Positions 4,534-61,472 of a DNA stretch of 64,000 nt are shown piece after piece. The position numbers were made by a program, and so were the translations under genes. The notes under the pieces were generated by a model. That model made no database searches, had not been told where the DNA came from, and worked only from the letters and a program-made list of their open reading frames with translations. Numbering within the stretch: position 1 is the stretch's first letter; the number at the start of each line of letters is the position of its first letter. The DNA comes from an uncultured bacterium (GTDB lineage: Bacteria; Fermentibacterota; Fermentibacteria; Fermentibacterales; JCC-6), in NCBI GenBank assembly GCA_965371785.1, contig CBDUZS010000002.1, forward strand, positions 2,362-66,361, written 5' to 3'.

Positions 4534-6828
4534 GTGATTCAACGAAAGGTTGTGATTATGTCTTGTATTTTTCTTGTACTCAGCATAGGGCTCATTTCGG
4601 GAGTCCCCGCCGGTCATGGTGAGTGGATCTCACTGGGAGGGGAGATAAGCGATCCTGTGGAGGTGGTTCTCCTCGAATCGTCTACCGAGGGCTTTACGGT
4701 GTCACTGGAACTGCCTGGGTTCACCATGACGGAAACACCGGGCGGCGGGGGAGTCTACTACCGGCTCGCGCTGCTCGAAAACCCCTGCAACTGGGACTCG
4801 CCAGGAATGCCTGAAGTACCGTTACTGCCTTCTCTGATAGGAATTCCTCATGGATGCACGGCGGTTGTCTCTTCGGTCGAGATGGAGACCGTCGTCTTCG
4901 AGAACATCATGCTCTACCCGGTACAGGAACCCGCTACGGATCATGAGTATTACACCGGTTCTTTCGTAATGGACGGTGATGCCTATCAGTCCTCCGAGCC
5001 TTACCCCGCTGAATCCGCGGCATTCGACCTGCCCGGTGTCTGGTCAGGTGTCGACGTAGCCAGACTCGTGCTCTCTCCGTTCAGGTACACCGCGAGCGAT
5101 CACACTCTGGAGGTCGCCAGCAGCATGATCGTGACGGTTTCATTCGAGGGACCGCACGATATCCAGACACCCGTCAGCCCCGCGATACAGCGGATTCACA
5201 AGACCCAGATCATCAACTACGAATCACTCGGGATACCTGAGGCGGATGCTACGGATGCCGACGACCCCATCTACATCGTGATCACGACGGATGAAAACCT
5301 CGAGTTCATCACCCCGCTCCTCCAGGTCGACCACGTCCTCGGCCATCACATGCAGATAGAAGTTCTTGCCGAGGGCTCGACCTCGAGCCAGATAATGAGC
5401 GCCATAACTTCGAACTACGAAGCGGGTATAACGAGGTTCGTTCTCATAGTGGCACGCCATCAGGAACTGCCGTCCTTCAATTACGGGGGCTTCTACGGGG
5501 ATTTTTTCTACTCCAATCTCGAGGCCGGAAACTACCCGGATGTGGGGCTCGGAAGGATTGCCGAAGCGCCTCCGGAGAACATAACGAACCAGGTCAACAA
5601 GATTCTTTCCTTCATCGGTTACACCGGTACTCCCGGTGAAGTCCCGATCTCGGCCAGCTGTGCGGCTGCCGCGCACGAAGAAGGCTACCCCGGTGGATAC
5701 ACCTCCAATAAGAACTCGATTGTGAACTGGCCCTACTCGGCTCTGGACATTGAATTCACTACGTTCTACCCGAACGAGGGCGCGACGGCCGAGGCGCTGC
5801 AGGCACTCATCAACGAGGGAATCGGCAGTGTGAACTACCGCGGTCATGGATCCGTTACCGTCTGGCAGTGGGGTCCCGGCTGGAACACCGGCAGAATCTA
5901 CAATCTGGAAAACACTTTCTTTCCGGTTGTATTCAACATCGCCTGCCTCAACGGCAATCACACGGCTATTTACAACTGCCTCTGCCAGAGCTGGATGGAT
6001 GCCGACAACAAGGGCGCCAGCGGTAATTTCGGCGCAAGCGCTTCTTCCTACACTACCGCTAACCACAGGCTTGACAGGGCTATTTACTGGACTCTCTACG
6101 ACGACGAGATATCCGCAGCCGGAGAGGCCATGGCGGACGCGGTCATCAACATGATCAACTACACGGGTGGCCTTGGAATAACCAACTCACACATGTACCA
6201 CTGGTTCGGCGATCCGGCCATGGACATCGTCACTACCGATGAGCTCGGCGCCCCATTTGCTCTCGTTCTGGGCGGTAACGGGGCAATAGGTCCCGGCGCT
6301 CAGAGCGAGACCTATACGGTCGTGAGCGACGGCTCTCCAGTCGAGGGTGTCACGGTCACGGCGTCCGATGGTATCGGCAACCATCCCGACGATATCGAGA
6401 ATTTCTACGAGTCGGGAACCACAAACTCCTCAGGACAGGTTACACTGAGCTTCACCTCCGTCGAGAATGACGACATCACAGTGGGCGCCTGGAAGCACAA
6501 CTACGTCTACGACACCATGATCGTGACCGTTGGAGGTACGGGAACGGGTGGCGCTGAAAACGATCCGATGCTGTTCATCTCCTCGCCTCGCCCGAACCCC
6601 TGCCGAAGCGTGGCTTCACTTGATTACACGCTTCCATCGACCGGTTATGCAGATCTCTACGTCATGGACCTGTCCGGCAGGAGGGTTTCCACACTCGTGT
6701 CCGGAGAACTTGCAGAGGGTGCTCATTCGGTATCGTGGGATACAACGGAAGTACCTTCAGGGCTTTACTTCGTAAGACTTGCCACAGCCGATGGAATCGC
6801 CACAGCCAGGTTGATGGTCGTGAAGTAG
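4534..6828 (+). CDS. peptidase C25 (gingipain-like cysteine protease) with T9SS C-terminal sorting domain
   Basis: 764 aa. Signal peptide. Catalytic His/Cys dyad context (NYRGHGS ... FNIACLNGNH). C-terminal ~80 aa Por/T9SS CTD (LYVMDLSGRRVSTLVSGELAEGAHSVSWDTTEVPSGLYFVRLATADGIATARLMVVK). AT-rich upstream region at 4380–4533. Confidence 0.85.
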   Translation: MIQRKVVIMSCIFLVLSIGLISGVPAGHGEWISLGGEISDPVEVVLLESSTEGFTVSLELPGFTMTETPGGGGVYYRLALLENPCNWDSPGMPEVPLLPSLIGIPHGCTAVVSSVEMETVVFENIMLYPVQEPATDHEYYTGSFVMDGDAYQSSEPYPAESAAFDLPGVWSGVDVARLVLSPFRYTASDHTLEVASSMIVTVSFEGPHDIQTPVSPAIQRIHKTQIINYESLGIPEADATDADDPIYIVITTDENLEFITPLLQVDHVLGHHMQIEVLAEGSTSSQIMSAITSNYEAGITRFVLIVARHQELPSFNYGGFYGDFFYSNLEAGNYPDVGLGRIAEAPPENITNQVNKILSFIGYTGTPGEVPISASCAAAAHEEGYPGGYTSNKNSIVNWPYSALDIEFTTFYPNEGATAEALQALINEGIGSVNYRGHGSVTVWQWGPGWNTGRIYNLENTFFPVVFNIACLNGNHTAIYNCLCQSWMDADNKGASGNFGASASSYTTANHRLDRAIYWTLYDDEISAAGEAMADAVINMINYTGGLGITNSHMYHWFGDPAMDIVTTDELGAPFALVLGGNGAIGPGAQSETYTVVSDGSPVEGVTVTASDGIGNHPDDIENFYESGTTNSSGQVTLSFTSVENDDITVGAWKHNYVYDTMIVTVGGTGTGGAENDPMLFISSPRPNPCRSVASLDYTLPSTGYADLYVMDLSGRRVSTLVSGELAEGAHSVSWDTTEVPSGLYFVRLATADGIATARLMVVK

Positions 6829-7170: not shown

Positions 7171-8142
7171 ATGAACCGATCGAGCAGACGCCTCCTGCTT
7201 ACCGGTGCAGCTGGTGCGGTAATCGCACTGGTATGCAGTTCGTGTCTGCTTGGAGGAGAACCTGCTCCCGGCTACCCGGGATACCTCCTGCGGACCTTTG
7301 ACTGTTCCGGATACGGTGAACCTGCCGCATGCTGCTTCTCCAGCGACGGTCTGTACGCTGTAGCATCGGCAGGGAAGACCCTTCTCTTCTTCGAGCTCCG
7401 GCACGGCAACCTATCGGGAAACATCACTCTCGATTCCGACGTGATCGCAGTTGTCAGCGTTCCCGGAGGGGACCAGCTGCTGGTCCTCTCCGAGCAGAGA
7501 CTCTTCGTTGTGAGTCAGTCAGGTTTCACGGTGACCGGTGATGTGGAACTTGCTGGCGCTGGGGCCTGGTTATCGATATCACCCGATGGCGCTTCGGCAT
7601 GGGTGCTTCATACCGATGGGTTCATTACCCGCCTTGCTCCTTCCGACTGGAGTGTCCTCTCGCACGAATGGACCGGAATCGATGCACCATCAGGTCTGAC
7701 GGTATCGGGTGACGGGGCGTCACTGTTCGTGGGCAGTAACGGAGATTCCACGATCTGCAGGCTTTCAGCCCCGGGTCTGGAACGAACGGGACAATGCGAA
7801 GTCTACAACACGGTCATTTCCCTTTTCAAGGGGCCTGACGGTATGCTGTGTGCACTCGTAGACGGCAGCAACGAGATCTGGTTCGTCGATGAGAGCAGCT
7901 GTACGGTTGATTACATGATGACCGTTCCGGATGTTCCGGTATGTGGAGCATCCATGCCGGATGGCAGCTTTGCGTACGCAGGAGTTCCGGGAACGGGGCT
8001 CGTGGTCTGCAGCAGTAGCGGTGAGCTCGTGCTCAAAACGGCTGTTTACGGTCTTCCGGGCAGTGTAACGCTCGAAAGTGAGGGCTGGAATGCCTTGATC
8101 TGTTCCACGGAGCAGATGAGCATCAGTATTCTGGAAAAGTAG
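7171..8142 (+). CDS. secreted hypothetical protein with beta-propeller-like repeats
   Basis: 323 aa. N-terminal signal/TM (LLLTGAAGAVIALVCSSC). Repeated SxDG..L/V blocks (SSDGLYAVAS, SPDGASAWVL, SGDGASLFVG, GPDGMLCALV, MPDGSFAYAG) resemble YVTN/WD40-like blades. Confidence 0.5.
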   Translation: MNRSSRRLLLTGAAGAVIALVCSSCLLGGEPAPGYPGYLLRTFDCSGYGEPAACCFSSDGLYAVASAGKTLLFFELRHGNLSGNITLDSDVIAVVSVPGGDQLLVLSEQRLFVVSQSGFTVTGDVELAGAGAWLSISPDGASAWVLHTDGFITRLAPSDWSVLSHEWTGIDAPSGLTVSGDGASLFVGSNGDSTICRLSAPGLERTGQCEVYNTVISLFKGPDGMLCALVDGSNEIWFVDESSCTVDYMMTVPDVPVCGASMPDGSFAYAGVPGTGLVVCSSSGELVLKTAVYGLPGSVTLESEGWNALICSTEQMSISILEK

Positions 8143-8148
8143 TCTTTA

Positions 8149-9003
8149 TCAGTTTCCCGGTATCACCAGCTCGATGTAAGTATCTTCCCTCAGTACCCTC
8201 AGGGTCAGATCCTGATCCGATGTGACCAGGAGTCCCCTGAGCGTTTCGGGATGGTATACCCTCATTCCGTTTATATCTGTAATCAGGTCTCCCCGTATCA
8301 GCCCTGATACATCCGCAGTGCTGCCCTGGGTAACGGATATGAGGAGGATTCCCGCAGGCCGTCCGTCGAGCTCGGTGCAGGTAAAGGACATGGCAGTGAC
8401 ACCAAAGGGCGGTGTGTTGATCTCGTAGTCGAACATTGCCAGCTGAGCCCACATGTACCAGAGCTGAGTTGGCAGGAGGGCTATCCTGGCGGATCTGACG
8501 TTGTGGGCCTCCGGCACTTCGATGACACCGGTCACGATACCGATGAAACCGTTCTCGTCGTTGAAAACGGGAGCGCCCATCAGACCGGATATCGGTGCGA
8601 CCGAGAGTACGATGGCTCCATCATTGGTCTGTGAGTCCGCATACGCCTGGACGGCAATGATACCTGAGACACTCTGACCGACGATGGTGAGTAGTTCCCC
8701 GATTTCGGGCAGGTCTTCCGATGGGAGCCTGTACGACGAGAAGGTGTCATCGGGGAACCTGAGCATTGATAAACCCATGTCCCTGAAAACGATGACGGAA
8801 TCAGGAAGCAGAGTGGAATCGCCGCTCATCAGGTACGGCGTGCAGTCGTCGCAGAAGGTGAAGAGTGTGATCGCACACTCGGGAGAGATTGCCACCGCGT
8901 TGCATAGCTCGATGTTCCCCGGTGAGACCTCCCTCGCAATGGACACAAGGGGCTCCATGGGCTGAACCCATGAAATAACGAGCGTGGTCAGCAGGAGCAG
9001 CAC
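8149..9003 (-). CDS. HtrA/DegP-like trypsin-fold protein with C-terminal PDZ domain. Catalytic motif degenerate, so probably a non-catalytic pseudo-protease.
   Basis: 284 aa. SGLMGAPVFNDENGFIGIVTG aligns with the HtrA GNSGGALVNLNGELIGINTA box, but the nucleophilic Ser is replaced (GLMGAP instead of GNSGGA). No His-containing TNNHV-like box is apparent upstream. C-terminal PDZ-like segment (GILLISVTQGSTADVSGLIRGDLITDINGMRVYHPETL). Last gene of the ECF sigma/anti-sigma operon. Confidence 0.6.
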   Translation of the reverse strand: MLLLLTTLVISWVQPMEPLVSIAREVSPGNIELCNAVAISPECAITLFTFCDDCTPYLMSGDSTLLPDSVIVFRDMGLSMLRFPDDTFSSYRLPSEDLPEIGELLTIVGQSVSGIIAVQAYADSQTNDGAIVLSVAPISGLMGAPVFNDENGFIGIVTGVIEVPEAHNVRSARIALLPTQLWYMWAQLAMFDYEINTPPFGVTAMSFTCTELDGRPAGILLISVTQGSTADVSGLIRGDLITDINGMRVYHPETLRGLLVTSDQDLTLRVLREDTYIELVIPGN

Positions 9004-9013
9004 GATCCGATTC

Positions 9014-9484
9014 CTAGAAGGTAATCAGAGTTGAAGGCCTTGAATAGGAAAGAAATGGAGATGTGGAGAAGTTGGTCTTGCTCAGGGAGTAAGATGTCTG
9101 AGATTTGCCGGATGTGATTCCCCTGTCTTCAATGTCCCCGGACCTTCGAAGGGGAGCGATGGAGATGAAGAGCAGCACAGCCGCTGCGAACGGCAGTACA
9201 ATCGCGTACTTCTTCAAAGCGGATCTGGTGGGTGAAACGGCAGGGAAGTCATCGGCATCCAGCCTTGCCCTTACCTTGTCGAGGAGATCCTCGGGCGGCG
9301 CAGGCTGGGAGATATCCCGGACGAGCTCCGATATGCTCATGGTCATCTTCAGGGCTGCTCTGCAGGAAGCGCATCCCATGAGATGGAATCTGAGAAGACG
9401 CCTCTGTTTTTCGTTTGCGATACCGTCGACGATGAGATCGATCAGTTTAAGAGCGTGTGTGCAGTTCATTTCCACTGCTCCCAT
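9014..9484 (-). CDS. anti-sigma factor, zf-HC2 type (single-pass membrane)
   Basis: 156 aa. HLMGCASCRAAL matches the H-x3-C-x2-C zinc-finger anti-sigma motif. One TM segment (IVLPFAAAVLLFISIA). Overlaps the 3' end of the ECF sigma gene. Confidence 0.6.
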   Translation of the reverse strand: MGAVEMNCTHALKLIDLIVDGIANEKQRRLLRFHLMGCASCRAALKMTMSISELVRDISQPAPPEDLLDKVRARLDADDFPAVSPTRSALKKYAIVLPFAAAVLLFISIAPLRRSGDIEDRGITSGKSQTSYSLSKTNFSTSPFLSYSRPSTLITF

Positions 9485-10059
9485 ACATCCTGAAGATAGC
9501 CTCTCAGGGCGGTCCTTGCTCGGTTGATCCGGGACTTGACGGTGCCTATCCTGATATCGAGGACTTCGGCGATCTCCTCGTACGTGAGTTCCTGTTTTTC
9601 TCTGAGAAGGAAGGGCTCACGATAATGGGGGGGCAGCTTGTTTATCGCTTCCTCGAGCGAAGCCCTCAGTTCGACCTGGCCGGAGTCGTAATGTGGTGCG
9701 GTCTTGCCCGGGCTGGTCAGGTTGACGTGCTCGAGGGGAATGTGGACCCATCTGGAGCGTCGTCTCCATTCCTTCTTGGCCAGATTCGAAGCTATGGTGA
9801 ATATCCAGGTTACCAGAGGTCGGCCGGGGTCGTAGTTGTTCCTGTACCTGTGTACCCTGCAGAATGTTATCTGAAGAAGTTCCTCGGCTTCCTCTTCGTT
9901 GCCCAGCATCCTGATAAGAAATGAGTAAACAGGATTCTGAAAGCGCCTGACTACTTCCGAGAACGCATCATCATCTCCGGAACACAGGTCGATCATCAGT
10001 TGCGAATCCGACCGGGGGTCCTTTTTCTTTCTTCTGCCCGAAATTAGTTTTGCACCCAA
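9466..10059 (-). CDS. ECF-type RNA polymerase sigma-70 factor
   Basis: 197 aa. Region 2 (FSEVVRRFQNPVYSFLIRMLGNEEEAEELLQITFCRV) and region 4 HTH (LTYEEIAEVLDIRIGTVKSRINRARTALR). Confidence 0.8.
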   Translation of the reverse strand: MGAKLISGRRKKKDPRSDSQLMIDLCSGDDDAFSEVVRRFQNPVYSFLIRMLGNEEEAEELLQITFCRVHRYRNNYDPGRPLVTWIFTIASNLAKKEWRRRSRWVHIPLEHVNLTSPGKTAPHYDSGQVELRASLEEAINKLPPHYREPFLLREKQELTYEEIAEVLDIRIGTVKSRINRARTALRGYLQDVWEQWK

Positions 10060-10184
10060 ACGGTGTACCTCCGTGGTCGAGCCATATTTCTTAAGATATA
10101 TACCATTCGGCAGGTGTATAGTTCCATCTATCTCCGTTTCCCGTTTCCTTGACCATCTCCGGCCAAAGTCGGAGTATACCGTTT

Positions 10185-12086
10185 ATGAAAGAAAAAGTAT
10201 TCCTCAGAATCCTCCTGCTAGTTCGTCCGTACTGGAAATGGCTCGTCGGAGCGGTTTTCTTCGCGGTGGTATTCGCTCTTTGCAGCGGGGCAACCATCGC
10301 GATGCTGCTGCCCGTTTTCGATGAGATTTTCGCAAGAACAGGCGAAGAGCATCAGGATTCCGATCTGATCCCGCTCCTTCGGGAGAACGTTCAGCCGGAA
10401 CTGGATTCCCTTGCCACCTCCCTGGTATCCTTCCGCATAGGTGACGCCGTTGCACATGCAGGCGCCATCGGAAAAGGCATCAACAACAGTCTCGGAGCAG
10501 CGGATCCAGTCCAGGCGCTGTTCGCGATCATCCTGACAATGGTATTCCTGATCTGTCTGAAGAATGCTTCGGCGTACATGCAGGTATTCTTCCTGTCACA
10601 TCTCGAAGAGGGCGTGCTCTACGACCTGCGCAACCTTCTCTACTCCCACATACTCAGCCTGGATCTGGGCTATTTCGCCTCGTGCAGATCAGGTGAGATC
10701 AACAGCCGCCTTACCGCCGACGTACTGAGGCTGAGAGGAGCCATCTCCCAGGCCCTCATCCATATGATCAAGCAGACGGTCCTTCTGTGCGTTTTCATGG
10801 CGATAGCTCTCTGGGCTTCCTGGAAACTTGCTCTCGTTACCCTCGGCGTGCTTCCGCCGAGTATGCTGATAATCATCCTCCTCGGGCGCAGACTCCGTAA
10901 AAAGAGCCACAGGGCACAGGAGAGGATGGCCGATTTCGCCTCGATCATATCCGAAACCGTATTCGGAGTCCGTGTTGTCAAGGCTTTCGCAATGGAAAAA
11001 TTCGAAGAGAGCAAATTCTTACGTGTACTCGGCTTACACCGGAGAAGCGAAATATCTCTTCGCAGGCTCCATGCGCTTTCAGGTCCTCTGACGGAGATAC
11101 TCGGTGCCGTTGCAAGCGGTGTCATTCTGTGGTTCGGCGGGAGGGCCGTGCTCTCGGGCGACGGCATTTCTGCAGGACGCTTCTTCGTTTTTCTCGCAGC
11201 AGCGCTTTCTATGATGGATCCCATCAAGAGCATTTCCAAAGCCAATGCAGGCATTCAGGCAGGGCTTGCCGCGGCAGAGCGGGTCTTCAGGCTTGTCGAC
11301 AGAAAGCCGGCAATCCTGGATCCGGAGCATCCGGTTCCCTTTGGCAGCTTCGAGATGGAAATCGAGTTCCATGATGTCTGCTTCAGTTACGTACCAGGTG
11401 AACAGGTGCTCACGAACGTGAATCTCAGGGTTCCCCGCGGTGAGATTCTCGCCCTGGTAGGTCCAAGCGGAGGCGGTAAGAGCACGCTCGTCGATATGGT
11501 GCCCCGATTCTACGACCCTGACAGCGGAAGAATTCTCATAGACGGTATCGACCTGCGTGATATCCCCCTGAGTGATCTGCGCCGCAACATGGGAATCGTT
11601 ACACAGGAAACAGTTCTCTTCAACGACACCGTCAGGAACAACATCGCTTACGGTGAGGATTCTATTCCACTGGAAAAGGTCCGCGAAGCCGCGGAAGCCG
11701 CCAACGCCCTGGAGTTCGTAAACAACCTTCCCATGGGTTTCGATACGGTGATAGGAGAGAGGGGATTAACCCTATCTGGTGGACAGAGACAGAGACTTGC
11801 AATAGCCCGTGCGGTTCTCAAGGACCCGCCGATTCTGATATTCGACGAGGCTACATCTTCACTCGATTCACATTCCGAGCAACTGGTTCAGAAGGCGATC
11901 GACAGCCTCATGAGCGGTAGAACCGCCTTCGTAATAGCCCACCGGCTGAGCACGGTCAGGAAAGCCCACAGGATCGTCTTCATAGAAAACGGGCAAATAG
12001 TCGAAGAGGGCACCCATGACGAACTGCTCTCCCTCGGCGGGAGGTACCGGAGACTGTATGAGCTCCAGTTCGCCGAAAATGCATGA
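10185..12086 (+). CDS. msbA: ABC transporter permease/ATPase of the MsbA (lipid A exporter) family
   Basis: Six-TM domain followed by an NBD. Walker A GPSGGGKST, signature LSGGQRQRLAIARA, Walker B ILIFDEATS. The ORF track starts at 10149, but MKEKVFLRILLLVRPYWKW at 10185 is the typical MsbA N-terminus. A heptosyltransferase follows, overlapping by 8 nt. Confidence 0.8.
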   Translation: MKEKVFLRILLLVRPYWKWLVGAVFFAVVFALCSGATIAMLLPVFDEIFARTGEEHQDSDLIPLLRENVQPELDSLATSLVSFRIGDAVAHAGAIGKGINNSLGAADPVQALFAIILTMVFLICLKNASAYMQVFFLSHLEEGVLYDLRNLLYSHILSLDLGYFASCRSGEINSRLTADVLRLRGAISQALIHMIKQTVLLCVFMAIALWASWKLALVTLGVLPPSMLIIILLGRRLRKKSHRAQERMADFASIISETVFGVRVVKAFAMEKFEESKFLRVLGLHRRSEISLRRLHALSGPLTEILGAVASGVILWFGGRAVLSGDGISAGRFFVFLAAALSMMDPIKSISKANAGIQAGLAAAERVFRLVDRKPAILDPEHPVPFGSFEMEIEFHDVCFSYVPGEQVLTNVNLRVPRGEILALVGPSGGGKSTLVDMVPRFYDPDSGRILIDGIDLRDIPLSDLRRNMGIVTQETVLFNDTVRNNIAYGEDSIPLEKVREAAEAANALEFVNNLPMGFDTVIGERGLTLSGGQRQRLAIARAVLKDPPILIFDEATSSLDSHSEQLVQKAIDSLMSGRTAFVIAHRLSTVRKAHRIVFIENGQIVEEGTHDELLSLGGRYRRLYELQFAENA

Positions 12087-13029
12087 GAACCGCGGGAACC
12101 ATAGGACAGTCGTAGTGAGACTGCACTCCCTCGGGGATGTTGTCCTTTCCTCCAGAACCGTGGAGATCCTTTCGAGGAACTCGGAAGTTCATTTCATAAC
12201 GAGAGAGGAATACACCCCGGTCGTGGATATCATGCCCGGGAATCCGGTTGCGGTTCCACTCCTGAAGGGAGAAGGTCTGGTGGCGATAAGACGCCATTAC
12301 AAGAGGATATCCCCCGATCTCCTGGTGGATCTTCAAGGCAACCTTACAAGCATTCTAGGGCTATGGCCACACGGGGTGCACAGGTTCGTTACCAACCGCG
12401 GAACTAGAAGAAGGCTGCTTGCCGGAAAAGGGGGGGAAATGCCCCTGAGAGCGGCAGAGTACCTTCGGACGGCCGGCCTCGAATCGTCCGACACATCACC
12501 GGTACTCTCCGGAAAATCCTCAACGGCCGATCGCAAGCCGACTGCGGGGCTGGTCACAGGAGGGAAATGGCATTCGAAGTCGATACCTTCCGGGGTGCTC
12601 GAAGAGACCGCAAGGCTCCTCGTGGACCGGCTCGGCTTCGAGATCAAGCTTATCGGTGACGCGAAAGCGCATTCCGAGAGAATGGCGCTCTCGATTGCCA
12701 GGAAGGGAGTCCGGGCAGCCGTTCCAGGAGGGGTTGACTCCCTCATCCGGGAGATCGAATCCCTCGACATCCTGATCTCCCCGGATTCCGGACCAGCTCA
12801 CCTCGCAAGGGCACTCGGGATCCCCGTTCTGGTCGTATTCACCACGACATCACCCTCCCTGGGATTCTGGGAACCCGACTATCCCGGGGTCTTCCTGAGC
12901 AGCGAGCTTCCGTGCAGACCCTGTCACAGGCATGGCGGGAATCGTTGCCGTCAGGGGGAATGGCTCTGCAGAAAGCTCATTGTTCCTCTGGAACTGTTCG
13001 AAGCCGCGGAAAGGCTGCTCGCCACGTGA
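12079..13029 (+). CDS. glycosyltransferase family 9 (ADP-heptose:LPS heptosyltransferase-like)
   Basis: N-terminal VVVRLHSLGDVVLSS (cf. IRLSSLGDV). C-terminal DSGPAHLARALGIPVLVVF. Start ATG 12079 (MHENRG...) overlaps the msbA stop (ATGCATGA). Confidence 0.75.
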   Translation: MHENRGNHRTVVVRLHSLGDVVLSSRTVEILSRNSEVHFITREEYTPVVDIMPGNPVAVPLLKGEGLVAIRRHYKRISPDLLVDLQGNLTSILGLWPHGVHRFVTNRGTRRRLLAGKGGEMPLRAAEYLRTAGLESSDTSPVLSGKSSTADRKPTAGLVTGGKWHSKSIPSGVLEETARLLVDRLGFEIKLIGDAKAHSERMALSIARKGVRAAVPGGVDSLIREIESLDILISPDSGPAHLARALGIPVLVVFTTTSPSLGFWEPDYPGVFLSSELPCRPCHRHGGNRCRQGEWLCRKLIVPLELFEAAERLLAT

Positions 13030-38079: not shown

Positions 38080-38682
38080 ATGGCAACCGTCAGTTTCAGT
38101 GCCAGGGAGATCGACTGCAAGATAGTCTACTGCGGTCCAGGCCTTTCCGGTAAGACGACCAACGTCCAATGGATACACAAGACGATTCCGCAAGATGCCA
38201 GAGGTAAGCTCATATCCCTTGCCGCAGGCAACGAGAGAACTCTCTTCTTTGATTTTCTTCCCATAGACACGGGTGAGATCAACGGGTTCAAGTTAAGACT
38301 TCATCTGTACAGCGTTCCGGGGCAGGCCATGTACTCCGATAGCAGAAGGCTCATACTCCAGTGCGTCGACGGTATCATTTTCGTAGCCGATTCGCAGATC
38401 GAGAGAATGGAAGCAAACCTGGACAGCCTGCGCGATCTCAAGGAGAACCTTCGCCGTCAGAAGAGAAAGGGAGTCAGCCTTATTCTTCAGGCGAACAAGA
38501 GGGATCTTCCCAATATCATTACAACCGATGAACTCATTACAACTCTCAGGCTGAACAGGATTTCCTGCGTCGAATCCGTCGCATGTGACGGCGTAGGAGT
38601 TTTCGAAACCCTCCGCAAGGTCAGTCGCATGGTGATCGGAAGGCTCCGCAGACAGTTCATGAGCTTCGAGGGAAGGGCCTGA
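38080..38682 (+). CDS. mglA: MglA-family Ras-like small GTPase
   Basis: 200 aa. REIDCKIVYCGPGLSGKTTN (P-loop). TLFFDFLP. LHLYSVPGQAMY (catalytic Gln context). FVADSQIERMEAN. NKRDLPN. Near-collinear with Myxococcus MglA. Confidence 0.85.
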   Translation: MATVSFSAREIDCKIVYCGPGLSGKTTNVQWIHKTIPQDARGKLISLAAGNERTLFFDFLPIDTGEINGFKLRLHLYSVPGQAMYSDSRRLILQCVDGIIFVADSQIERMEANLDSLRDLKENLRRQKRKGVSLILQANKRDLPNIITTDELITTLRLNRISCVESVACDGVGVFETLRKVSRMVIGRLRRQFMSFEGRA

Positions 38683-48149: not shown

Positions 48150-48179
48150 CTCAGGCATCGGTTGAACACTGGAGATGGT

Positions 48180-48758
48180 ATGCACAGATCGGGAAACGAA
48201 GTTGCCTACAAGATCGTATTCTACGGTCCGGGTCTTTCCGGAAAAACGACAAACCTCAGGGGAATCAGGGATTTCATAGCTCCGGAGAACCGCGGTCGCC
48301 TGGTCACGCTCTGCACGCGGGGTGAGAGAACCGTGTTCTTCGATTTCCTTCCGATCAACTTCGCAAACATTGCCGGAACCCGGATCAAGCTGCATCTCTA
48401 CTCCGTACCCGGCCAGGCCTACTACGCGCTCAGCCGTCGTGTGATACTCGATGGCGTCGACGGGCTCGTCTTCGTGGCCGACAGCCAGTTGGAAAGGTCC
48501 GATGCCAATCTCGACACGATGGACGATCTCGATCACAACCTGCAGTCGTACGGGCTCAGACTCCAGAGCATCCCACTTGTCCTCCAGTTCAACAAACGCG
48601 ATCTTCCGGGAATAACTGACGTCGAAACCATGAACATGGATCTCAACAGGAATGGCTGGCCAACCGTCGAATCGGTTGCACTCGGAGGTCATGGTCCCGC
48701 CGAAACCCTCAAAATCATCTCCGCTATCATGGCCAGACGTCATGTCAGCAAGGGCTGA
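48180..48758 (+). CDS. MglA-family Ras-like small GTPase, second paralog
   Basis: MHRSGNEVAYKIVFYGPGLSGKTTN. TVFFDFLP. LHLYSVPGQAYY. FVADSQLERSDAN. NKRDLPG. GGAG 5 nt upstream of ATG 48180; the track start at 48162 is also possible. Confidence 0.8.
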   Translation: MHRSGNEVAYKIVFYGPGLSGKTTNLRGIRDFIAPENRGRLVTLCTRGERTVFFDFLPINFANIAGTRIKLHLYSVPGQAYYALSRRVILDGVDGLVFVADSQLERSDANLDTMDDLDHNLQSYGLRLQSIPLVLQFNKRDLPGITDVETMNMDLNRNGWPTVESVALGGHGPAETLKIISAIMARRHVSKG

Positions 48759-60284: not shown

Positions 60285-61472
60285 TCAGTTCCTCTGATTG
60301 AATTCCGTTCCGAGCTGGTATGATTTCCCCCAGTCGCTCCAGCCGCCTATGATATTGGATGTGGAGATCACCATAGTGTCACCTAACAGCTTTACTATGG
60401 CGAACCCGTAGCTGTTGTCCGCGCCGGCATCGTTGAAGATGATATTGTCGAAAAAGACACTGTCCTCCTGTGAGTCCAAACCCGCAAACACTCGCCAATG
60501 GTGCTCTTCATGTACGTGACCTGTGAATATGCCGAGAACGTTGTACGGTTGCGCCGCCTGGTAAGTAGTGTCGTTCCAGTCCCGACGGCAAAGCACGTCG
60601 AGCTCCAGATCCCTCATTTCCGGGGTCCACCAATGACCATTAGTGCTTTCGTAATCCCAGCCGTAGTGCTGGAATATAAGAACGCCGAGTCCAGTTGTAC
60701 CGACATGCTCTGCGAGGAAGTCCTTCAACCAGTTGAGTTTGGAATAAGATATGTGTGTATTGCTTTCGTAACCACACGATCCAGCCCATAAGCCAAGCGA
60801 GATGAAGTAGTACTGTCCCCAACGCCAGATGTATGCTCCACTGTTGTCGTCGAAGAAAGCCAGAATTCCTTGCGCATTCCCGATACGGTAATTGATGTAA
60901 TCACCCGGTTGACCCCAGCCAGTGGGACTGTCGCCGTAGGGTGGGCAATCGTGATTGCCGATAGTGGGGAATACAGGTTTGTGGACCCTGTATCCACAGC
61001 TATAGGCATTGTAGTCAGTGTCAAAAGCCCCGTAGATGGAACCGCCGTCCATGCCGGGATAATCGTTCTCATAAAGCTGTCTGAACGCTATGAGGTTCTG
61101 GGTGTTGTTGGCATCCACCATGTCTCCCAAATGCACGATTCCATGACAGTTGTCGTACAGATGGTCGTTCAGACCCTGGATCGTCCTGCGATTGCGAATT
61201 ACATGCCAGGTGTCACGGTATTGATGATCATGGCCTGGCACCCAGCCAGCATAGCTGGCATCGATATGGGTATCGGCAATCACGCCGAAGTAAACGATCG
61301 TTTCGTTGGGATTCACGGGATGGACATATATAGGATTTGGCATCCCGGGATTATCATTATTTCCATCGGACGATGGCTCTATTGGGTTATCCCTGCATCC
61401 AGTCATTAACATTAACAAGAGAATACCGTGAATAATTATGACTGTCATGATTGCTTTTCGATTCGAGTACAC
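60285..61472 (-). CDS. calcineurin-like metallophosphoesterase lipoprotein
   Basis: 395 aa. Lipobox LMLMTGC. Metallophosphoesterase motifs D-x-H (GVIADTHID), GDMVD, GNHD, GHVHEEHH. Lower GC than the window average. Confidence 0.8.
   Translation of the reverse strand: MYSNRKAIMTVIIIHGILLLMLMTGCRDNPIEPSSDGNNDNPGMPNPIYVHPVNPNETIVYFGVIADTHIDASYAGWVPGHDHQYRDTWHVIRNRRTIQGLNDHLYDNCHGIVHLGDMVDANNTQNLIAFRQLYENDYPGMDGGSIYGAFDTDYNAYSCGYRVHKPVFPTIGNHDCPPYGDSPTGWGQPGDYINYRIGNAQGILAFFDDNSGAYIWRWGQYYFISLGLWAGSCGYESNTHISYSKLNWLKDFLAEHVGTTGLGVLIFQHYGWDYESTNGHWWTPEMRDLELDVLCRRDWNDTTYQAAQPYNVLGIFTGHVHEEHHWRVFAGLDSQEDSVFFDNIIFNDAGADNSYGFAIVKLLGDTMVISTSNIIGGWSDWGKSYQLGTEFNQRN

Follow-up and report, generated by a model that had tools for sequence, protein, structure and literature searches.

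A non-catalytic HtrA-fold PDZ protein encoded with an ECF sigma factor and its anti-sigma factor in Candidatus Fermentibacteria

Sigma factor operons with an HtrA-family gene

Operons that join a sigma factor of the extracytoplasmic function (ECF) type and its anti-sigma factor to a PDZ protein of the HtrA family are known, and the HtrA members that have been studied in such systems are active enzymes, serving as the site-1 protease or as a quality-control protease. This study concerns an operon of this kind at positions 8149-10059 (minus strand) of a 64-kb stretch of DNA (64,000 nucleotides, hereafter the window) from an uncultured bacterium of the Fermentibacterota (contig CBDUZS010000002.1). 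Its third gene encodes a protein with the HtrA fold, a single PDZ domain and a lost catalytic site, here called pseudo-HtrA. The entire phylum has fixed this non-catalytic HtrA, with methionine at the nucleophile position and the PDZ domain kept, and the extreme C-terminus of the accompanying anti-sigma factor is strongly selected.

In architecture, pseudo-HtrA resembles DegS of Escherichia coli and AlgW of Pseudomonas aeruginosa; all three have an N-terminal hydrophobic segment, a chymotrypsin fold and a single PDZ domain, and all are linked to an ECF sigma/anti-sigma pair. Structures of DegS and AlgW are also structural matches of pseudo-HtrA (3gdv, 6ew9, 7co2/7co3), with the carboxylate-binding loops of the PDZ domains in alignment. 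However, DegS and AlgW are active site-1 proteases with a His-Asp-Ser triad, whereas in pseudo-HtrA the serine is replaced by methionine and the histidine is absent; its protease-like domain is additionally about 45 residues shorter, and its N-terminal barrel cannot be aligned with theirs by sequence. The degS gene lies outside the rpoE operon, unlike the pseudo-HtrA gene, which lies inside its sigma operon.

In layout, the operon shows the same order of sigma factor, anti-sigma factor and HtrA-family PDZ gene as rpoE-rseA-mucD of Xanthomonas campestris and Stenotrophomonas maltophilia and algU-mucABCD of P. aeruginosa. MucD is proteolytically active, belongs to the DegP type and carries two PDZ domains, whereas pseudo-HtrA is catalytically dead and has one. 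The rpoE-rseA-mucD operon is itself sigma-dependent (PMC4229105). The anti-sigma factors also differ, since the one encoded here is of the zinc-associated anti-sigma (ZAS) type with a tail of 44 residues, whereas the RseA/MucA type has a large periplasmic domain. Unlike the rpoE and algU systems, the Fermentibacteria operon is without RseB or MucB, which share the logic proposed below: both are non-enzymatic periplasmic proteins, encoded in the sigma operon, that bind the anti-sigma factor and protect it from site-1 cleavage until a signal arrives. The RseB fold is nevertheless unrelated to that of pseudo-HtrA, and no RseB homology was found in domain and family-model searches.

The sigE-rseA-htrA (Rv1223) locus of Mycobacterium tuberculosis likewise places an ECF sigma factor, a ZAS-type anti-sigma factor and an HtrA-family PDZ protein side by side, and structures of the M. 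tuberculosis HtrA (5zvj, 7w4u) are among the fold matches of pseudo-HtrA. That HtrA is an active, essential protease, and M. tuberculosis RseA is cytoplasmic, unlike the anti-sigma factor described here. Loss of catalysis has a published precedent in MamO of magnetotactic bacteria, a protein of the Deg branch whose catalytic function is dispensable and which was repurposed for a non-catalytic role (PMC4794232). Unlike pseudo-HtrA, MamO has a TauE transporter domain joined to it, is a binder of metal ions, takes part in biomineralization and retains triad-like His, Asp and Thr residues; it also lacks the PDZ and anti-sigma context of pseudo-HtrA. Overall, the system is most like a hybrid that combines the architecture and PDZ sensing of DegS, the proposed role of RseB and the layout of rpoE-rseA-mucD. 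A literature search, whose coverage ended at subscription journals, turned up no account of a catalytically inactive HtrA encoded in a sigma/anti-sigma operon, and neighbours of the PDZ, trypsin or DegP kind are not mentioned in the main text of the ECF re-classification paper.

A catalytically dead HtrA-fold protein and a conserved anti-sigma C-terminus

The operon interval is filled exactly by three tightly packed open reading frames, which encode the ECF sigma factor, the zf-HC2 anti-sigma factor and pseudo-HtrA (Table 1). The first two overlap by 4 nt (ATGA, with the M6 start of the database calls) or by 19 nt (with the first ATG), and 10 nt separate the anti-sigma stop from the pseudo-HtrA start, a gap that ranges from 0 to 16 nt across the orthologous loci; from this spacing we infer that the three genes are co-transcribed. 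The gene downstream of pseudo-HtrA is convergent, with 6 nt between the two stops, and pseudo-HtrA is therefore the last gene of the unit. Scans for terminators and sigma-70 promoters around the operon gave nothing above chance. Because orthologs of all three genes occur in the same order in every sufficiently long locus among 33 related loci, the pattern does not reflect chance open reading frames. An earlier note on this DNA had proposed an operon of an ECF sigma factor, a zf-HC2 anti-sigma factor and an HtrA-like PDZ protein, and the reading frames, the Pfam matches and the AlphaFold2 and Foldseek results all agree with that assignment.

The HtrA fold of the third protein is evident in structure and faint in sequence. 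An AlphaFold2 model of pseudo-HtrA was obtained with a predicted local distance difference test (pLDDT) of 87.4 and a predicted template modelling score (pTM) of 0.80, and its Foldseek matches extend over the protease and PDZ domains of DegP, DegQ, MucD, M. tuberculosis HtrA, DegS and AlgW (E ~1e-13, template modelling score ~0.6). In contrast, the sequence stays below the cutoffs of Trypsin_2 (19.6 vs 27.6 bits) and TIGR02037 (degP_htrA_DO; 25.4 vs 416 bits). Both hmmsearch and hhalign align pseudo-HtrA with HtrA proteins only from about residue 97 onward; a forced global hhalign of the N-terminal barrel gave a Prob of 4.5%, was judged unreliable and was not used.

At the nucleophile box the earlier note had read GLMGAP, and the alignments corroborate this reading: M142 falls on the catalytic serine of GNSGG by phmmer against the Protein Data Bank (PDB), by hmmsearch of the family profile against the PDB and by hhalign against DegS, with the HtrA proteins of Helicobacter pylori and Campylobacter and DegS as the aligned references. 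Both M142 and G143 are invariant in 31 database clusters and in 35 of 35 orthologous loci, and so is A144, apart from one genome locus in which it is replaced by Ser. For the histidine, a stretch SPxHAVTLxAF can be likened to the classical S1 box SPxWVLTAAHC, and in the AlphaFold model its residues 43-47 form a strand and 48-50 the short turn after it, the arrangement seen in genuine S1 proteases. This motif and secondary-structure register puts T49 of the window protein at the predicted His position, a column that is A, I, M, T, L or V across the family and never His; whatever the register, the N-terminal barrel has no invariant His in the 31 clusters and 35 loci. The note's remark that no catalytic His box is evident is thus upheld, and no intact triad at shifted positions was found.

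The orthologs uniformly lack the serine, and a histidine at its predicted position (31 clusters, 35 loci). In the alignments and in the AlphaFold2 model, D75 is invariant and stands just before a strand (residues 78-82), like the D-x-A-V-L-K box; it may be a relic of the catalytic Asp. Judged from sequence, pseudo-HtrA cannot be a canonical Ser/His/Asp protease, and since it lacks the defining catalytic features it is filed here as an HtrA-fold pseudo-protease and not as an S1C peptidase. The names 'S1-C subfamily serine protease' and 'RseP' that some family members carry from automated annotation are therefore misleading. The former active-site region nonetheless probably still has a role, as Met-Gly-Ala is fixed instead of drifting and 32 columns are invariant among sequences that are only 35-45% identical.

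Residue 43 (window positions 8875-8877) is His in most clades; the clade of the window and one other (P0009, P0010, P0015) have Cys, and the database protein P0023 has Asn. Alternation of His and Cys is typical of metal ligands, and residue 43 could, together with Met142 and Asp75, both of them invariant, make up a metal site of the kind present in the pseudoprotease MamO. Additionally, the search of database representatives returned an unrelated protein of 849 aa (P0143) with several PDZ-like repeats, in which the S1 boxes read THARF and GSFGG in place of TNxHV and GNSGG. It too seems to be HtrA-like and catalytically dead, suggesting that losses of this sort recur.

The PDZ domain, which the earlier note had called intact, proved to be so, with PDZ_6 above its cutoff and an invariant carboxylate-binding loop. 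This loop, F200-G-V-T-A204, was placed by hhalign on the YIGIG carboxylate-binding loop of DegS, and Y-H251-P-E253, at the start of helix alphaB (residues 252-261 in the AlphaFold2 model), is also invariant. In PDZ domains, the carboxylate loop and the alphaB element hold the free C-terminus of the ligand and read its upstream residues. At the other end of the protein, the hydrophobic N-terminal segment is modelled as a low-confidence helix; its character, and not its sequence, is kept in all full-length orthologs, with the exclusion of one locus (L034) that is truncated by a contig end.

The anti-sigma factor matches zf-HC2 (27.9 bits vs a cutoff of 22.2), and its ZAS motif, C8 + H34xxxC38xxC41, is complete and invariant across 34 orthologs. 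Its single transmembrane helix has basic residues at either end (KK ahead of it, RR behind it), so that charge gives no clue to its orientation; because zf-HC2 is a cytoplasmic domain that binds the sigma factor, we assume that the N-terminus is inside and the C-terminus outside. The tail that follows the helix (44 aa in the window) is hypervariable in length and sequence save for its last ~15 residues, and the ~25 residues that precede this motif are hypervariable as well. Within the motif, P-14, Y-10, R-8 and the terminal Phe (F-1) are invariant in 34 of 34 orthologs. The third codon positions of these residues are free to vary, and Ser-5 persists whether it is encoded by TCN or by AGC; therefore, selection on the tail acts at the protein level and not on an RNA element or ribosome-binding site. 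This conserved free C-terminus of the anti-sigma factor is a new observation.

PDZ domains bind short tails that end in a free hydrophobic residue, and with its invariant terminal Phe and protein-level selection the anti-sigma tail is a candidate PDZ ligand. The tail is also similar to what site-1 cleavage leaves in E. coli, where the PDZ tandem of RseP lets through only RseA that has been trimmed on the periplasmic side (PMC7728848); a hydrophobic C-terminal residue was reported to be necessary (Li et al. 2009, as cited in PMC7728848).

Table 1. Features of the operon and its neighbourhood, in window positions
Feature	Position	Strand	Description
ECF sigma gene	9466..10059	-	197 aa, TTG start; group 4 ECF sigma-70 family
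Anti-sigma gene	9014..9484	-	151-156 aa depending on start; membrane-anchored zf-HC2, ZAS-type, class I
Pseudo-HtrA gene (gene 3)	8149..9003	-	284 aa, GTG start; non-catalytic HtrA fold with a single PDZ domain
N-terminal uncharged hydrophobic segment of pseudo-HtrA, ~residues 1-14	8962..9003	-	putative signal peptide or DegS-like membrane anchor
Degenerate chymotrypsin-fold (S1C-like) domain, ~residues 17-190	8434..8955	-	two beta-barrels and a C-terminal helix in the AlphaFold2 model
Dead nucleophile loop G140-L-M142-G-A-P (replaces G-N-S-G-G-A)	8569..8586	-	residues 140-145
PDZ domain of pseudo-HtrA, ~residues 200-281	8161..8406	-	PDZ_6, 29.2 bits vs cutoff 27
Single transmembrane helix of the anti-sigma factor, ~residues 93-112	9149..9208	-	Kyte-Doolittle 19-residue maximum 2.51 at residues 94-112
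Anti-sigma tail motif (A)P-x3-Y-S-R-[QP]-x-S-[LV]-x-[ST]-F-COOH	9017..9061	-	window sequence SPFLSYSRPSTLITF
Candidate autoregulatory ECF-type promoter GGAAC-N17-GTATA	10099..10125	-	-35 'AAC' box and -10 'GTA' box; conserved motif
MsbA-like ABC exporter and heptosyltransferase-like GT9	10149-13029	+	divergent from the sigma promoter, 89-nt intergenic region
323-aa protein	7171-8142	+	lipoprotein-like N-terminus (…ALVCSSC); convergent on the pseudo-HtrA gene
Gingipain-like C25 peptidase	4534-6828	+	propeptide and type IX secretion C-terminal sorting domain

The pseudo-HtrA family is sharply bounded and restricted to the Fermentibacteria phylum. A search of one genome per species gave 34 loci, all in metagenome-assembled genomes, most of which carry the name Candidatus Fermentibacteria, Fermentibacteraceae, Aegiribacteria or Sabulitectum, with the remainder titled 'uncultured bacterium'. 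An exhaustive HMMER scan of 1.84 billion representatives returned ~10 full-length relatives scoring at least 236 bits; the matches under 236 bits were one fragment of the family or proteins matched chiefly via their PDZ domains. The 31 clusters of the family, which reduce to ~10 representatives at 50% identity, all belong to Fermentibacteria.

The sigma factor consists only of the sigma-2 and sigma-4 regions (Sigma70_r2, 59.7 bits; Sigma70_r4_2, 65.2 bits), has an N-terminus that agrees with its orthologs and passes TIGR02937 (sigma70-ECF; 96.2 bits vs a cutoff of 42.9). It reaches no equivalog cutoff, the best model being PRK12513 (127.8 vs 206 bits), and it lies below the cutoffs for RpoE (TIGR02939; 86.5 vs 236 bits) and SigW (105.9 vs 243 bits). 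Upstream of the sigma gene, GGAAC is found at the equivalent position in the window and in all 32 loci with enough upstream sequence, the 17-nt spacer between GGAAC and GTA(T/A) varies, and the 3' box is GTA in all but two of these loci (CTA in L003, ATA in L013); the stricter GGAAC-N17-GTAWA is matched exactly in 23 loci. Within the 64-kb window there is a single copy of the motif, where chance predicts 0.08, and elsewhere there is one per locus; it therefore pointed to no further regulon members within the window. Its form suggests the usual autoregulatory ECF promoter, as a function predicted from sequence.

A proposed role in guarding the anti-sigma factor

The three genes are best explained as a module for envelope stress, probably autoregulated, that extends across Candidatus Fermentibacteria, a phylum without cultured members. 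The loss of catalysis in pseudo-HtrA and the conservation of the anti-sigma tail are well established, and for the mechanism we infer the export of pseudo-HtrA, the contact between tail and PDZ domain, the protease and the signal. We hold only tentatively, and at somewhat short of an even chance, that pseudo-HtrA binds the anti-sigma tail and guards it from proteolysis until an envelope signal arrives. Under this proposal, the ECF sigma factor would be held at the membrane by the ZAS-type anti-sigma factor, and pseudo-HtrA, exported or anchored via its hydrophobic N-terminus and with catalysis permanently lost (Ser to Met, His to non-His), would act as a peptide-binding regulatory subunit rather than as a protease. 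It would grip the free S-Φ-x-[ST]-Phe C-terminus of the anti-sigma factor through the PDZ groove, the conserved dead cleft or both, and its bulk would form a cap that shields a tail resembling an already site-1-trimmed anti-sigma factor. The protease kept off in this way might be a site-2 protease that uses PDZ as a size filter, or else one that is tail-specific. The simplest release cue would be competition from the C-termini of outer-membrane proteins left unassembled, in the manner of DegS, whose PDZ domain senses the C-termini of outer-membrane proteins (PMC8103513); another envelope cue might serve instead. Once freed, the anti-sigma factor would be degraded, and the sigma factor would then transcribe its own operon from the GGAAC-N17-GTA promoter.

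Counted in favour of this explanation are the dead yet fixed active site, the confidently modelled HtrA fold with the one-PDZ layout of DegS and AlgW, the conserved PDZ loop, the conserved tail, the strict synteny and the unique promoter motif, together with the MsbA-like and heptosyltransferase-like genes next to the operon. The suggestion of the earlier note that the protein gates cleavage of the anti-sigma factor by another protease is plausible, and the guarding proposal gives the note's RseB-like logic in a different fold a more specific form. If the pairing is direct, a DegS-type sensor could control an anti-sigma factor by binding alone, and the module would offer a simple, testable case in which a bacterial pseudo-enzyme serves as a receptor in signalling. 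A more specific version, which we consider unlikely, dispenses with a site-1 protease altogether: a 'pre-trimmed' anti-sigma factor, with a 44-aa tail that ends in a hydrophobic Phe, would escape the site-2 or tail-specific protease only as long as a dead DegS-like receptor grips its free C-terminus in the PDZ domain or the dead cleft, and under envelope stress the exposed C-termini of unassembled outer-membrane proteins would displace the tail by direct competition. If this version is true, a protease fold has been turned into a pure receptor and shield.

Several results weigh against the guarding proposal. In none of the pseudo-HtrA orthologs is the hydrophobic segment preceded by a basic (K/R) n-region, an unusual state for a Sec signal that leaves export uncertain. 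The 64-kb window contains neither a recognizable site-2 protease, its only open reading frame with HExxH and LDG (60285-61472) having no Pfam match, nor an active HtrA with GNSGG and TNxHV boxes. Synteny alone singles out no functional link, because all five genes of the conserved block around the operon are syntenic across the phylum. Covariation between the tail and the PDZ domain was uninformative, being confounded by phylogeny and clade structure, with mutual information of 1 in many columns; 9 of the top 20 columns lie in the PDZ domain vs 54 of the 163 variable columns overall, a difference that is not meaningful. Docking was addressed through P0023, a chain of 447 aa in which the anti-sigma factor is fused to pseudo-HtrA. 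In its AlphaFold2 model the tail, the 3-residue junction and the N-terminus of gene 3 form one helix (pLDDT 64-88), and the tail is absent as a strand from the PDZ groove; this test is weak because the fused chain has no free carboxylate, yet it lends the proposal no support.

P0023 is the sole fusion of an anti-sigma factor with pseudo-HtrA in the databases. Its junction (L035:735-749) reads TTC TTA GGA ATA ATG, whereas its relatives have TAA, TAG or TGA after TTC. It was rejected as a natural fusion, given that a single base (TAA to TTA) accounts for the lost stop and that the contig is only 2.2 kb long; the stop loss probably arose through an error in sequencing or through recent mutation.

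The same observations can be read in other ways. Pseudo-HtrA might belong to the output of the system in a MucD-like way and serve as a sigma-regulon holdase or chaperone that binds misfolded envelope proteins independently of proteolysis and makes no contact with the anti-sigma factor; by lowering the stress signal it would provide negative feedback, a role that has been proposed for MucD in the rpoE-rseA-mucD and algU-mucABCD operons. The gene order, which equals that of the published sigma-E-regulon operon rpoE-rseA-mucD (PMC4229105), the position of pseudo-HtrA as last gene of an apparently autoregulated unit, the retained peptide-binding loop of the PDZ domain and the presence of MucD among the structural matches (8k2y) all suit this account. 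However, the single PDZ domain and hydrophobic N-terminus are those of DegS and AlgW and not the two cage-building PDZ domains of DegP and MucD, and a pure chaperone role leaves both the conserved extreme C-terminus of an otherwise drifting anti-sigma tail and the fixed Met at the nucleophile position unexplained; we regard it as a somewhat doubtful alternative. Quite unlikely, in our view, is a mixed oligomer, in which pseudo-HtrA would co-assemble with, or allosterically control, an active HtrA/DegS paralog that is the site-1 protease. HtrA proteins act as trimers, and the conserved dead cleft and core are compatible with a retained oligomer interface. MamO furthermore provides a published pseudoprotease that is needed for MamE-dependent proteolysis, yet in that system no physical interaction of MamE with MamO was detected (PMC4794232). 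The window holds no active paralog with which such an oligomer could form, and the protease-like domain is trimmed, with an N-terminal barrel too diverged to align with HtrA proteins by sequence.

A cytoplasmic location of pseudo-HtrA, by N-out/C-in insertion or lack of an export signal, would let its PDZ domain act, for example, on the sigma/anti-sigma complex. The missing basic n-region and the continuous helix of tail and hydrophobic segment in P0023 would fit such a topology, whereas HtrA-family PDZ proteins are typically extracytoplasmic, some orthologs carry A-x-A/S-like sites after the hydrophobic core, and P0023, with its single-base stop loss on a short contig, does not represent a natural architecture. 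We consider this location improbable. Least credible, and highly improbable, is that pseudo-HtrA is a hydrolase with non-canonical residues or a decaying gene without function. Invariance of D75 and the alternation of His with Cys at residue 43 might hint at unusual catalysis, but no Ser, Cys or His is invariant that could provide a universal pair of nucleophile and base. Decay is excluded by the 32 invariant columns, the confidently predicted fold and the intact reading frames in every locus save L034, which is cut by its contig.

Neighbouring genes

The operon sits in a block that is present in every sufficiently long locus and comprises the divergent MsbA-like ABC exporter, the genes for the sigma factor, the anti-sigma factor and pseudo-HtrA, and the convergent gene of the 323-aa protein. 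The best model for the exporter is the lipid A flippase MsbA, at 527 bits and below the cutoff of 602, and the GT9 gene comes after it, so that genes for the biogenesis of LPS and the outer membrane adjoin the stress sigma factor. With the C25 peptidase, which carries a type IX secretion tail and indicates a host that bears this secretion system, also nearby, these genes indicate that the host is diderm and that the neighbourhood concerns the outer membrane. The 323-aa protein, which adjoins or lies near the pseudo-HtrA gene in nearly all related loci, has no Pfam match; a profile of its orthologs gave only weak matches to beta-propellers (Pizza6 and PknD blades, E ~5e-6), and it might act in the envelope as an additional partner of the module. 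Farther along the window, two paralogous open reading frames of ~200 aa on the plus strand (38080-38682 and 48162-48758) begin with what we take to be an MglA-like small-GTPase N-terminus (KIVYCGPGLSGKTTN and KIVFYGPGLSGK, respectively).

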